Positions 1,144 to 5,742 of a DNA stretch of 5,742 bases are shown piece after piece (position 1 is the stretch's first letter; every line of letters begins with the position of its first letter). Made by a program: the position numbers and the translations under genes. The notes beneath the pieces were generated by a model. That model was not told the origin of the DNA and did no database searches. It saw nothing but the letters and a program-made list of their open reading frames with translations. Source of the DNA: a virus (taxonomy: Duplodnaviria; Heunggongvirae; Uroviricota; Caudoviricetes); IMG/VR virus record IMGVR_UViG_2663762627_000004; one strand, 5' to 3'.

Positions 1144-2424
1144 ATGAAATATCCGACAGGCGTGGAAAACCATGGAGGGAAATTACGTATCTGGTTTGTT
1201 TATAAAGACGTAAGAGTCAGGGAAAATCTGGGGGTTCCTGACACAGCAAAAAACAGGCGCGTTGCAGGTGAACTACGCTCCTCTGTTTGTTACGCAATAA
1301 AAACTGGTGTTTTCGACTATGCAAAACAGTTTCCCTCCTCACGCAATCTGGAAAAATTTGGTGAGGCCCGACAAGATTTAACCATAAAAGAACTGGCTGA
1401 AAAATTTCTGGCACTGAAAGAAACTGAAGTCGCCAAAACATCACTCAACACATACCGTGCCGTCATCAAAAATATCCTGAGCATAATCGGTGAAAAAAAT
1501 CTTGCCTCATCGATTAATAAAGAAAAATTACTGGAGGTTCGTAAAGAGTTACTGACTGGATACCAGATCCCCAAAAGTAACTATATTGTTACACAACCAG
1601 GGAGATCGGCTGTAACTGTAAATAATTACATGACAAATCTTAACGCCGTGTTCCAGTTTGGTGTTGATAACGGTTACCTGGCAGATAATCCGTTTAAGGG
1701 GATCTCGCCATTAAAGGAATCAAGAACCATTCCGGATCCTCTTTCGCGGGAAGAATTTATCCGTCTTATCGATGCGTGCAGAAATCAGCAAGCAAAAAAT
1801 TTATGGTGTGTTTCTGTTTATACTGGAGTTCGCCCTGGTGAGCTGTGTGCACTTGGATGGGAGGACATAGATCTGAAAAATGGAACAATGATGATCAGGA
1901 GAAATTTAGCAAAAGACCGTTTCACGGTACCAAAAACACAGGCGGGAACCAATCGGGTCATTCATCTTATTAAGCCAGCAATCGACGCTCTCCGGAGTCA
2001 GATGACATTAACGAGACTGAGCAAAGAGCATATCATTGATGTTCACCTCAGAGAGTATGGCAGAACAGAAAAACAAAAATGCACCTTTGTTTTTCAACCT
2101 GAAGTGTCAGCGAGAGTAAAAAATTATGGTGACCATTTTACCGTTGACTCAATAAGGCAGATGTGGGACGCAGCGATAAAACGTGCCGGACTCCGCCATC
2201 GAAAATCATATCAGTCGAGACATACTTATGCCTGCTGGTCGCTGACAGCTGGTGCTAACCCGGCATTTATAGCAAACCAGATGGGCCATGCAGATGCGCA
2301 AATGGTATTTCAGGTATACGGAAAATGGATGTCTGAAAACAATAATGCACAGGTAGCTTTGTTAAATACACAGTTAAGCGAGTTTGCCCCAACCATGCCC
2401 CATAACGAAGCAATGAAAAATTAA
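1144..2424 (+). CDS. intQ: Phage integrase, tyrosine recombinase family; apparently full length
   Basis: Long ORF ending at TAA 2422-2424. Catalytic-region motifs are present: TGVRPGEL (box I Arg), SRHTYA (H-x-x-R region) and MGHADAQMVFQVYGKW (C-terminal catalytic Tyr). Start chosen at ATG 1144 (MKYPTGVENHGG), which has GAGAGAAG 5-12 nt upstream; the in-frame ATG at 1129 has no ribosome-binding site. The symbol is by position next to rspB, as I recall for the K-12 Qin prophage, and is not sequence-verified. Confidence 0.88.
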   Translation: MKYPTGVENHGGKLRIWFVYKDVRVRENLGVPDTAKNRRVAGELRSSVCYAIKTGVFDYAKQFPSSRNLEKFGEARQDLTIKELAEKFLALKETEVAKTSLNTYRAVIKNILSIIGEKNLASSINKEKLLEVRKELLTGYQIPKSNYIVTQPGRSAVTVNNYMTNLNAVFQFGVDNGYLADNPFKGISPLKESRTIPDPLSREEFIRLIDACRNQQAKNLWCVSVYTGVRPGELCALGWEDIDLKNGTMMIRRNLAKDRFTVPKTQAGTNRVIHLIKPAIDALRSQMTLTRLSKEHIIDVHLREYGRTEKQKCTFVFQPEVSARVKNYGDHFTVDSIRQMWDAAIKRAGLRHRKSYQSRHTYACWSLTAGANPAFIANQMGHADAQMVFQVYGKWMSENNNAQVALLNTQLSEFAPTMPHNEAMKN

Positions 2425-2439
2425 TTTAATATTTATCAA

Positions 2440-2475
2440 ATAGTTAACACGCATGACTCTTGAAATCCATAAATT
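2440..2475. other. Approximate prophage/host junction (attR core region)
   Basis: Inferred from where the minus-strand transporter N-terminus stops looking transporter-like (after EFMDF, codon 31 at 2462-2464) and from the integrase stop at 2424. The core sequence itself cannot be defined without the other prophage end or an empty site. Confidence 0.3.
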
Positions 2476-2554
2476 CAAGCGCAGTGCCCAGCCATCCCGA
2501 TACTGCTGCTTTCACCAAATCCTTAGTGCTTCTTTCGTGTTTTTCTATTGTCAT
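2444..2554 (-). pseudogene. ydfJ: 5' stub of a ydfJ-like MFS (metabolite:H+ symporter family) transporter gene, truncated by prophage integration
   Basis: Minus-strand ORF not in the supplied track: ATG at 2554-2552, 36 codons (MTIEKHERSTKDLVKAAVSGWLGTALEFMDFKSHAC), stop at 2446-2444. The A-A-x-x-G-x-x-x-E-F-x-D-F block matches the conserved N-terminal motif of ProP/KgtP-type transporters. A GAGA ribosome-binding site lies about 9 nt upstream. The gene sits directly downstream of rspB on the same strand. Confidence 0.55.
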
Positions 2555-2567
2555 AATGGTTATCTCT

Positions 2568-2598
2568 AAAAAAGAGGTAAGATGCGTACTACTTACTC
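2568..2598 (-). terminator. Possible intrinsic terminator or attenuator between rspB and the transporter stub
   Basis: On the minus strand an imperfect hairpin (GAGTAAG ... CTTACCTC, about 7 bp with one bulge, 10-nt loop) is followed directly by TTTTTT (plus-strand A-run 2568-2573), starting 13 nt after the rspB stop. Confidence 0.3.
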
Positions 2599-2611
2599 GC
2601 CGTTATTGGTA

Positions 2612-3631
2612 TTATTCAGAAAAAGTGAGTAAGACTTTGCAGCAATGTTTTTGATCCTGTTCAAATAAACTAATGGCATCAGCAACATGCTGGAAATCAA
2701 ACGTATGGGTAATTAATTTTTCTGGTTTAATTAACCCTTTACTTAACCAGTCGATAACGACCGGAAATTTATTTGCATTTAAGCGTGAAGAAAAAATAGA
2801 GAGTTCTTTTCCGGTAATTCCTTGCTGAATCACTTCAGACGGTTCACTGGAGAAGCCCATCAATACAATACGTGCCGCTGGAGAAGCCAGCGTTACGGCC
2901 TCTTTCAGGATAGAAGGATGACAAGCCGCATCGATAATTAATGTCGGCTTGATGCCTTTTTCAGTGAAAATCTCGCCAAGCGGTGTCTGGCTGTTATTAA
3001 TCGCCCAGTCAGCCCCGCTCTCTTTCGCTTTTTCCAGTCGTTCATCAATGCGATCGGCAACAATCACATTTTTAACGTTATAGACGCCTTTTAATACCTG
3101 AACGATCGTCAGGCCGATTGGACCGGCACCATAAACCAGAACGGTATCATTTTCAGTCGGTTGACCATGACCGGTTACGTTAGCCGCAATGGTAAAAGGT
3201 TCGATCATCACCGCATATTGATCGGCCACTGCTTCAGGAATTTTCCACGCATTTTTTGCCGGAACCACGGCATATTCACTGAAACCACCGTCAGCGTGCA
3301 CACCTAATACAGCCAGTGTCGTACAAACGTTCGGTTTACCTATAGAGCACGGATAGCAATGCCCACAGCTGACCACCGGATCGACAGCAACACGTTCACC
3401 GACTCTGGCGCTTTCCACGCCGTCACCCACTGCATCAATGACGCCAAAGAATTCATGACCAATGACGCGCGGATATTTCGCAAAAGGATTATGCCCACGA
3501 TAAATATGGCTATCTGAACCACAAATTCCGGCAAGTTTCACTTTTACTCGTACTTCACCCGCTGACGGGGTGGGTATTTCACGTTCGACAATCGCCAGTT
3601 GATTCGGTTTTTCAATTAATATGCTTTTCAT
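2612..3631 (-). CDS. rspB: Zn-dependent medium-chain alcohol/sugar-acid dehydrogenase RspB (starvation-sensing protein B)
   Basis: 339-aa product starting MKSILIEKPNQLAIVERE, with a catalytic-Zn motif (GICGSDSH, GHEFFG), a structural-Zn Cys cluster (CGHCYPCSIGKPNVC) and a Rossmann motif (VYGAGPIG). Start set at the internal ATG 3631-3629 because it has GGAG about 10 nt upstream, whereas the track's upstream ATG (3655) lies inside rspA. The gap to the rspA stop is 11 nt, so the two are co-transcribed. Confidence 0.93.
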   Translation of the reverse strand: MKSILIEKPNQLAIVEREIPTPSAGEVRVKVKLAGICGSDSHIYRGHNPFAKYPRVIGHEFFGVIDAVGDGVESARVGERVAVDPVVSCGHCYPCSIGKPNVCTTLAVLGVHADGGFSEYAVVPAKNAWKIPEAVADQYAVMIEPFTIAANVTGHGQPTENDTVLVYGAGPIGLTIVQVLKGVYNVKNVIVADRIDERLEKAKESGADWAINNSQTPLGEIFTEKGIKPTLIIDAACHPSILKEAVTLASPAARIVLMGFSSEPSEVIQQGITGKELSIFSSRLNANKFPVVIDWLSKGLIKPEKLITHTFDFQHVADAISLFEQDQKHCCKVLLTFSE

Positions 3632-3642
3632 TATCTTACTCC

Positions 3643-4857
3643 TTACCAGTTCCACAGCGTGCCATCTTCCAGACGTGCGACTGGTAGATAAGCAGGTTCA
3701 TAGGGATATTTCGCCGCCAGCTTTTCATCGAATTCGATACCAAGACCCGGTTTGTCTCCCGGATGCATATAGCCGTTATCGAAAGTCCAGTTGTGCGGGA
3801 AGACTTCGAGCATTTGTTCGGAATAACCCATGTATTCCTGGACACCGAAATTGGGGACCCACAGATCAAAGTGCAGCGCCGCAGCCATGCAGACTGGTGA
3901 CAAATCGGAAGGACCGTGTGAGCCAGTACGTACCTGATACAGCGAAGCAAAATCGGCAATCCGGCGCATACCGGTAATTCCGCCTGCATGGGTCAGCGTG
4001 GTGCGGATATAATCGATGAGTTGCTCTTCAATCAGTTGTTTGCAGTCCCAGATGCTGTTGAAGACTTCACCCACTGCGATGGGTGTGACGGTATGTTGGC
4101 GAATGAGACGGAAGCATTCCTGGTTTTCCGCAGGCGTCGGGTCTTCCATCCAGAACATGCGATAATCTTCAATGCTTTTACCAAAGCGCGCCGCTTCAAT
4201 AGGCGTTAAGCGATGGTGCATGTCATGCAGCAAATGTTCATTAAAACCAAACTTGTTACGTACCGCGTCAAACAATTTCGGCATGAAATCGAGGTATTTC
4301 TCCGTCGACCACAGCTGCTCTTCCGGCCACTGTCCTTTGGTTGCGGGTTCATAAGCCAGACCTTTACCTTTCGACATGCCGTAGGTGGTTTTCATACCAG
4401 GGATTCCGCACTGCACGCGGATGGCTTTGAATCCCAGCTCCTGATGACGGGCATAATCATCCAGAGCTTCATCAATACTGTGACCGGTGGTATGGCAATA
4501 AACCATCACCCCTTCACGAGACGCGCCGCCGAGTAACTGGTAAAGCGGCATGTTGGCAGCTTTGGCTTTAATATCCCACAGCGCCATATCAACCGCTGAA
4601 ATGGCCGACATCGTAACCGGACCGCGACGCCAGTAAGCACCTTTATAGAAAAACTGCCAGATATCTTCGATACGGTGCGCATCGCGACCAATAAGCTGCG
4701 GACAAAGGTGATCCTGCAAATAAGAGGCCACGGAAAGCTCACGTCCATTGAGGGTGGCATCCCCAAGGCCCGTAATACCGTCCTCAGTGGTGATTTTTAA
4801 CGTGACGAAATTACGCCCCGGACAGGTAACAAAAACTTCAGCCTTTACGATCTTCAT
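3643..4857 (-). CDS. rspA: Enolase-superfamily D-mannonate dehydratase-like protein RspA (starvation-sensing protein A)
   Basis: 404-aa product starting [27 protein letters not shown] and ending LEDGTLWNW, recognisable as RspA (mandelate racemase / muconate lactonizing enzyme fold). Start set at ATG 4857-4855 with AAGGAA about 7 nt upstream; the track's extension to 4890 adds 11 residues with no ribosome-binding site. Confidence 0.95.
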
Positions 4858-5062: not shown

Positions 5063-5389
5063 CTACGTGCGCCCCCAGCCCGCAACAATGATCAACATGC
5101 CGCAAAGCGCAATCAACGCCCCCGTCCAGTCATAAAGACTTAGTTTCACGCCATCCACAACGCGCAGCCACATCAACGCCGTGCAGACATAAACGCCACC
5201 ATAAGCCGCGTAAACACGCCCACTCGCCGCAGGATGCAACGTTAACAACCAAACAAACAGCGCCAGTGAAATCCCCGCCGGAAGCAACAGCCAGATACTG
5301 GCGTTTCGTTTTAACCACAACCAGGGCAGAAAGCATCCAATAATTTCACACAGCGCAGTAGCAAAAAATAGTAACGTTGTTTTAATCAT
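5063..5389 (-). CDS. ynfA: Small inner-membrane protein YnfA (UPF0060 family, four predicted TM helices)
   Basis: 108-aa hydrophobic product [26 protein letters not shown] ... IIVAGWGRT, stop TAG at 5065-5063. Start set at ATG 5389-5387; the track's longer ORF begins at a GTG 9 nt further upstream (5398). Confidence 0.88.
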
Positions 5390-5523: not shown

Positions 5524-5667
5524 ATGAAAATCACTCTCAGCAAACGAATCGGCCTGCTCGCTTTTCTGCTGCCTTGCGCACTGGCATTGAGCACAACTGT
5601 TCATGCCGAAACTAACAAACTGGTGATTGAGTCTGGCGACAGNNCANNNANCCNNCAGNNCNCNGCN
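5524..5667 (+). CDS. ynfB: Secreted small protein YnfB (UPF0482 family), 5' portion only; frame runs into ambiguous bases
   Basis: ATG at 5524 with a good ribosome-binding site. The product [28 protein letters not shown]|[11 protein letters not shown] has a classic signal peptide. Codons through the N cluster (AGN NCA NNN ANC CNN CAG NNC NCN GCN) are compatible with SAQSRQHAA, the continuation I recall for YnfB. Sequence after 5667 does not continue the remembered YnfB sequence in any forward frame. Confidence 0.65.
5643..5667. other. Cluster of 13 ambiguous (N) bases interleaved with called bases
   Basis: Read directly from the sequence; this is the only place in the window with N characters. 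Confidence 0.95.
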
Positions 5668-5742
5668 CACTGCCTGTACCGGTTCGCTGCCCGCTGTCGG
5701 TTATCAGGATCTGTACGTTATGGCGTGCGGCACCGTCCAGCA

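Follow-up and report, generated by a model that had tools for sequence, protein, structure and literature searches.

What occupies the short interval between a prophage integrase gene and the bacterial gene rspB, and how did it come to be there? The question is raised by positions 2425–2611 of the 5,742-nucleotide stretch of DNA analyzed here (the window), in which a 36-codon reading frame on the minus strand begins like a transporter, continues into unrelated residues, and stops just short of the integrase gene. The first-pass annotation had interpreted this interval as a prophage attachment site lying within the first ~30 codons of a ydfJ-like transporter gene. Our analysis arrives at the same reading with a probability of about 97%: positions 2425–2611 constitute the integrase-proximal att junction of a Qin-type lambdoid prophage, generated by Campbell-type integration through a tyrosine integrase into ydfJ. 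The lambda convention makes this junction attL; in K-12 coordinates it corresponds to Qin's right end.

The window and the integration genes

The window is the ynfB-ynfA-rspA-rspB neighborhood of Escherichia coli adjoining a prophage end. On the bacterial side, ynfB starts at 5524 and runs onward on the plus strand (ORF list and family scans), and three genes lie on the minus strand: ynfA (5063–5389, 327 nt, as annotated in relatives; the mechanical ORF extends to 5398), rspA (3643–4857), and rspB (2612–3631). RspA belongs to the enolase superfamily as a D-mannonate dehydratase (ManD; NF043051 at 744 bits, cut-off 550), and RspB is a Zn-dependent oxidoreductase (NF007489, 694.6 bits). The right end of the window is chimeric, with 5641–5667, inside ynfB, partly N-masked and 5668–5742 no longer ynfB. 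These last 75 bases correspond to F-plasmid traI at 98.7% identity (3002 plasmid places), which suggests a scaffolding or assembly join.

The phage side, read entirely on the plus strand, begins with the right end of an IS3-family element (IS1203-like; 1–293), followed by the C-terminal part of a prophage 3'-5' exonuclease gene (294–785), both recognized from the ORF list and family scans. The IS1203-like element sits inside the exonuclease gene, at an insertion point shared with AUSMDU00014361 (L017); across this IS/exonuclease junction, the genomes that are most similar overall (99.6%) are not colinear with the window. Further along lie an excisionase gene of the DUF1233 family (858–1109, 83 aa; PF06806, 108.1 bits, above the cut-off), annotated as excisionase in both L004 and L017, and, adjacent to it, a full-length tyrosine integrase gene (1144–2424, 426 aa, or 431 aa if counted from the ATG at 1129).

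Family scans of the integrase recovered the catalytic domain family PF00589 (66.2 bits) and, at the N-terminus, the arm-DNA-binding domain PF12167 (Arm-DNA-bind_2; 78.5 bits), both above their cut-offs. Alignment to the Tn1549 integrase (6emy) shows the catalytic residues R230, K264, R359, H382, and Y392 to be present, with Tyr356 at the position of the first His of the canonical R-K-H-R-H-Y set. This first-His position varies among active integrases. Within the last int codons, two TGCCCCA motifs spaced 11 bp apart on the plus strand (2385–2391 and 2396–2402) lie at −77 and −66 from the attachment core described below; taken alone, two exact matches in the window are not significant, as this count was reached in 34 of 200 shuffles. 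A TG[CT]CCCA pair of equal spacing and orientation recurs at +130/+141 of the far prophage arm in K-12 (L005 8409–8415 and 8420–8426), in MDK6L1, and in a diverged O157 prophage. We suggest these pairs, including the one at 2385–2402, as candidate arm-type Int-binding sites.

The attachment core and the chimeric reading frame

The crossover was located by a three-way att comparison that set the empty site (CUPS04, L003) against the junction in the window and the one at the far prophage end in MDK6L1 (L004) and K-12 (L005). MDK6L1, used as a proxy, matches the window at 99.6% identity, and its junction shows no difference from that of the window. Common to attB, the window junction, and the far junction is a core of 11 exact bases, GAAATCCATAA, at 2462–2472 of the window, and the arms on its two sides are exchanged. 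Thus, attB reads ATAACTG, GAAATCCATAA, ATTCAAGC; the window junction reads GACTCTT, GAAATCCATAA, ATTCAAGC; and the far junction reads ATAACTG, GAAATCCATAA, TTCACAGG. K-12 MG1655 carries the same sequences at both of its junctions. In the ydfJ frame, the core extends from part of codon 28 to codon 31 (F-M-D-F). Alignment to an empty-site locus and a search for a shared core at the far prophage end had both been proposed as checks on the attachment-site reading: the former bounds the crossover at 2462–2472, that is, at codons 28–31, close to the predicted first ~30 codons, and the latter recovers the 11-bp core in the proxy genomes, whose far ends stand in for that of this element.

If one mismatch and a 1-bp indel are allowed, attB and attP have ~19 bp in common, CTKGAAATCCATAA(A)TTCA. 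This imperfect shared sequence agrees with the 18–19 bp att sequence defined for ydfJ-integrating phages by Nakamura et al. 2021 (PMC8112680), who also obtained an attP amplicon from the ydfJ prophage of O26 strain 11368. In the tandem prophage cluster of O157:H7 OK1, an internal junction (L006 3163) is attP-like, with the core flanked directly by the integrase-side arm on one side and the far-side arm on the other. Its integrase-side arm matches window 2425–2461, the 37 bp between the int stop and the core, and the same bases diverge from the empty site, identifying them as phage-derived DNA of the P' side. The boundary annotated in K-12 is likewise placed: the 'cryptic prophage Qin' feature of NC_000913.3 (1632277..1652745) extends from one copy of the core up to the base that precedes the second copy, which is equivalent to window 2461, and its edge thus falls exactly at 2461/2462. 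In the occupied strain THO-006 (L008 1798–1808), the far junction carries a core variant, GAAGTCCATAA, which represents a synonymous change in ydfJ codon 30.

From 2462 rightwards through rspB, identity to the empty site is continuous, and 289 of 289 bases match empty-site genomes such as H19 and H20, an identity far beyond chance. Beyond the core, the host-derived sequence at 2473–2554 (minus strand; 100% identical to the empty site) supplies ydfJ codons 1–27 and the first base of codon 28. The 36-codon frame (2444–2554, minus strand), listed among the ORFs as MTIEKHERSTKDLVKAAVSGWLGTALEFMDFKSHAC, is accordingly chimeric. Its residues 1–31 are identical in 31 of 31 positions to the N-terminus of the intact 455-aa YdfJ of the empty-site genome CUPS04 (L003 3726–5093), whereas residues 32–36 (KSHAC) are unrelated to YdfJ and are encoded, together with the stop, by phage bases 2444–2461. 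The transporter-like beginning and the switch to unrelated residues described in the first-pass annotation therefore resolve into 31 YdfJ codons and five phage codons. The TAA stop of the stub (2444–2446) is separated by a 19-bp gap from the convergent TAA stop of int (2422–2424). At the other end, its ATG (2552–2554) lies 57 bp downstream of the rspB stop (2612–2614) on the same strand, at precisely the distance first noted, and the spacer (2555–2611, minus strand) corresponds to the rspB-ydfJ intergenic region.

The stub is already known in K-12 as ynfP (b4534; NC_000913.3 1652728..1652838), with 36 of 36 residues the same and the same placement between int and rspB. PGAP annotation of other genomes calls no gene at this position, which fits the observation that the ORF was missing from the gene track supplied with the window. 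A Pfam search with the 36-aa stub alone returned no family match because the peptide is too short, and its identity is shown instead by the direct alignment to intact YdfJ.

The displaced part of ydfJ and the sugar-acid cluster

In occupied genomes, the remainder of the transporter gene, ydfJ' (427 codons from Met29), and ydfI are found beyond ~24 kb of prophage in MDK6L1 and ~20.5 kb in K-12. The expectation that the rest of the gene would lie past the other prophage end is thus confirmed in these two proxies, and so is the proposal that the integration separates rspA-rspB from the downstream transporter and dehydrogenase genes. The stub carries exactly the 28 codons that the distant ydfJ' lacks, with only the 11-bp core duplicated, and in MDK6L1 ydfJ' is annotated as 'missing N-terminus'. 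The interruption of K-12 ydfJ by Qin is likewise supported by the K-12 annotation and by PMC6379469, which reports Qin at the 5' end of ydfJ, with loss of the promoter and 28 codons, in 48% of 638 strains. Our own junction count agrees with this figure: the int–stub–rspB junction is present in 2660 of 5426 complete E. coli genomes (49%). The Qin-type far junction occurs in 3161 genomes of the same set (58%).

Intact YdfJ matches TIGR00883 (metabolite/H+ symporter) at 462.9 bits against a cut-off of 443.45. The profile starts at YdfJ residue 23, which places the core, and with it the cut, right where the conserved transporter body begins. The cut would fall within the first transmembrane helix, such that ydfJ' would be missing half of helix 1. 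A search for a phage-side promoter-like site pointing into ydfJ' found none, and the displaced gene probably lacks a recognizable promoter or ribosome-binding site.

In all seven occupied genomes sampled (L004, L005, L007–L011), ydfJ' is an intact 427-codon ORF, and its pN/pS across these genomes is 0.022; in six genomes with an empty site, the corresponding region gives 0.017. Divergence of the prophage flank and of ydfJ' is discordant between strain pairs: L004 and L009 differ by 0.4% in the flank and 2.8% in ydfJ', while L004 and L005 differ by 1.5% in the flank and 0.08% in ydfJ'. This discordance points to a mosaic, recombinant history. We considered the low pN/pS as a signature of selection after integration and rejected this interpretation, as mosaic histories account for the low ratio equally well. 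Given the intact ORF and a pN/pS of ~0.02, simple inactivation of ydfJ by the split is not proven.

In genomes with an empty site, the genes are arranged as rspA-rspB-ydfJ-ydfI, the spacers on the two sides of ydfJ measure 57 bp and 88 bp, and rspR is nearby; a transporter gene therefore does follow rspB there, as the attachment-site reading presupposes. No promoter-like or terminator-like site was found between rspB and the stub or ydfJ, which fits co-transcription of ydfJ with rspAB. The 88-bp ydfJ-ydfI spacer of the empty site contains a 12-pair hairpin with a T-rich tail (L003 3692–3719, minus strand) that may act as a terminator or attenuator and so set ydfI apart from rspA-rspB-ydfJ. Co-transcription of rspAB with both ydfJ and ydfI as an operon in empty-site strains is plausible. 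RspR represses rspAB, which yields a transcript of ~2.3 kb, and Qin separates rspR from rspAB (Shimada et al. 2021, PMC8249747).

The score of RspA exceeds the ManD equivalog cut-off, as noted above, and that of YdfI exceeds the cut-off of the fructuronate reductase subfamily; for RspB, an L-idonate 5-dehydrogenase model is among the weaker matches (169 bits, well below the cut-off). Judged from these family assignments, a route from a sugar acid through fructuronate and mannonate to 2-keto-3-deoxygluconate appears plausible. With RspR as the regulator, rspA-rspB-transporter-ydfI may form an L-gulonate catabolic cluster, a role with which the families are consistent; Wichelecki and colleagues reportedly described an L-gulonate pathway in Biochemistry in 2014.

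Several prophage-free strains show lesions of their own in this cluster: an IS1 inside ydfJ in ECZP248 (L001 3739–4436), a frameshift in rspB in 510016 (L013 1949–2931), and internal stops in ydfJ (W174*) and ydfI in UPEC957C (L016 524–1891). In view of such independent breakage in some empty-site strains, the cluster appears to be dispensable.

These observations can be assembled into a sequence of events. The phage attP and the bacterial site share GAAATCCATAA at ydfJ codons 28–31, where tyrosine-integrase-mediated recombination joined them. Strand exchange within the core left ydfJ codons 1–31 behind rspB, running into five phage codons and a stop, and moved the rest of ydfJ (427 codons from Met29), along with ydfI, ~20–24 kb away to the other prophage end. 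The RspR-repressed rspA promoter would now drive rspA-rspB-ynfP and then presumably read antisense into int. The sugar-acid cluster would in this way be left with no transporter of its own and cut off from ydfI.

Alternative origins and significance

Two other origins of the locus were weighed against site-specific integration. In one, ynfP is an independent small gene, arisen either when the 5' end of ydfJ was partially duplicated or as a separately evolved ORF. Its appeal lies in expression data: a YnfP protein of exactly the sequence seen here has been detected as a translated product in K-12 (VanOrsdel et al. 2018, PMC6001520 Table 1), and a preprint reports that ynfP is up-regulated in long-term nitrogen starvation and that a ynfP deletion mutant recovers growth more slowly, at n=2 (bioRxiv 10.1101/2020.03.30.016519). 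Expression of this kind is, however, compatible with a by-product of integration, and the surrounding DNA argues strongly for the latter. The core is the only sequence duplicated in occupied genomes, and the 28 codons missing from the distant ydfJ' are precisely those present in the stub. Where the site is empty, this DNA merely forms the beginning of the 455-codon ydfJ, and the last five codons of ynfP are phage-arm DNA that also occurs in the attP-like junction. The three-way att comparison thus rules out an independent origin, which we regard as very improbable.

The other alternative attributes the split of ydfJ to an IS-mediated insertion, a deletion, or some other illegitimate rearrangement. 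IS elements are indeed abundant in this region, as illustrated by IS1203 in the exonuclease gene of the window, IS2 at K-12 intQ, and IS1 in ydfJ of ECZP248, but no IS end abuts the junction. The arrangement is instead the classical one of lambda: the tyrosine int gene, with xis next to it, ends 37 bp short of the junction, and the core is identical in attB, both junctions, and the attP-like site. Furthermore, at least three unrelated prophage far arms (L005, L010, L011), >40% divergent beyond the core, join at exactly the same core, indicating that several phages use the ydfJ site. The shared core and the use of one site by different phages rule out an IS-mediated split, to which we assign a probability close to nil, lower still than that of an independent ynfP.

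Site-specific integration accordingly remains our explanation of the junction. A separate matter is whether its outcome was something other than a plain knock-out, with both halves of ydfJ co-opted and YnfP holding a role of its own in starvation recovery; we consider this unlikely.

Both the junction and the ynfP stub are already annotated and published, and the junction is an ordinary, textbook one. Beyond correct annotation, it matters little in itself. Its wider interest is that a sugar-acid utilization cluster can be taken apart, in about half of the E. coli strains, by a prophage whose target is the conserved beginning of a transporter gene, and that the integration creates a small, translated chimeric ORF, which automatic pipelines of the PGAP type leave out.

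Comparison with K-12 Qin and other prophages

The closest known counterpart of the element in the window is Qin (Kim) of K-12 MG1655, whose right-end junction, intQ/ynfP/rspB, has the same core and both arm sequences. Across window 2300–2750, the junction DNA is 100% identical to K-12-lineage genomes, and K-12 intQ shows no mismatches to window 1265–2424. The Qin genes dicBACF, relBE, cspBFI, ydfK, and pinQ, among others, are present in the proxy MDK6L1 (99.6% identical). However, K-12 intQ is a pseudogene that an IS2 fragment cuts short by approximately its first 40 codons, and K-12 has no xis. The window shows no such truncation at IS2: it has a full-length int and xis, and its IS1203 insertion is located further in, in the exonuclease gene. 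The element is therefore Qin-type but not the K-12 allele. With int and xis both full-length at this end, this copy might still excise, unlike the one in K-12.

A broader set of relatives is formed by the PPydfJ prophages and prophage clusters of STEC O157:H7, O26:H11, and O177:H25 (PMC8112680), which have the same attB inside ydfJ and a related integrase (in O157 OK1, the 3' end of int is 88.8% identical in DNA sequence). They differ from the element studied here, which matches the Qin-type defective prophage, in being larger, in carrying type III effector genes, in often being arranged in tandem, and in possessing other far arms (in L011, with DinI-like and NleG proteins).

Beyond ydfJ, the locus can be set beside the integration of Rac at ttcA and of e14 at icd. 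Both icd and ttcA stay functional after integration. As at ydfJ, a tyrosine integrase has in each case inserted the prophage site-specifically within a protein-coding gene, and a short duplicated or pseudo fragment is left: e14 duplicates the 3' end of icd as a pseudo icd' of 163 bp, and TtcA has its N-terminus altered by Rac (PMC6379469). The ydfJ site differs from both in that the phage supplies no replacement N-terminus. At its far junction, the reading frame is closed by a TGA two codons before Met29, which precludes a substitute N-terminus, and ydfJ consequently loses its first 28 codons together with its promoter.
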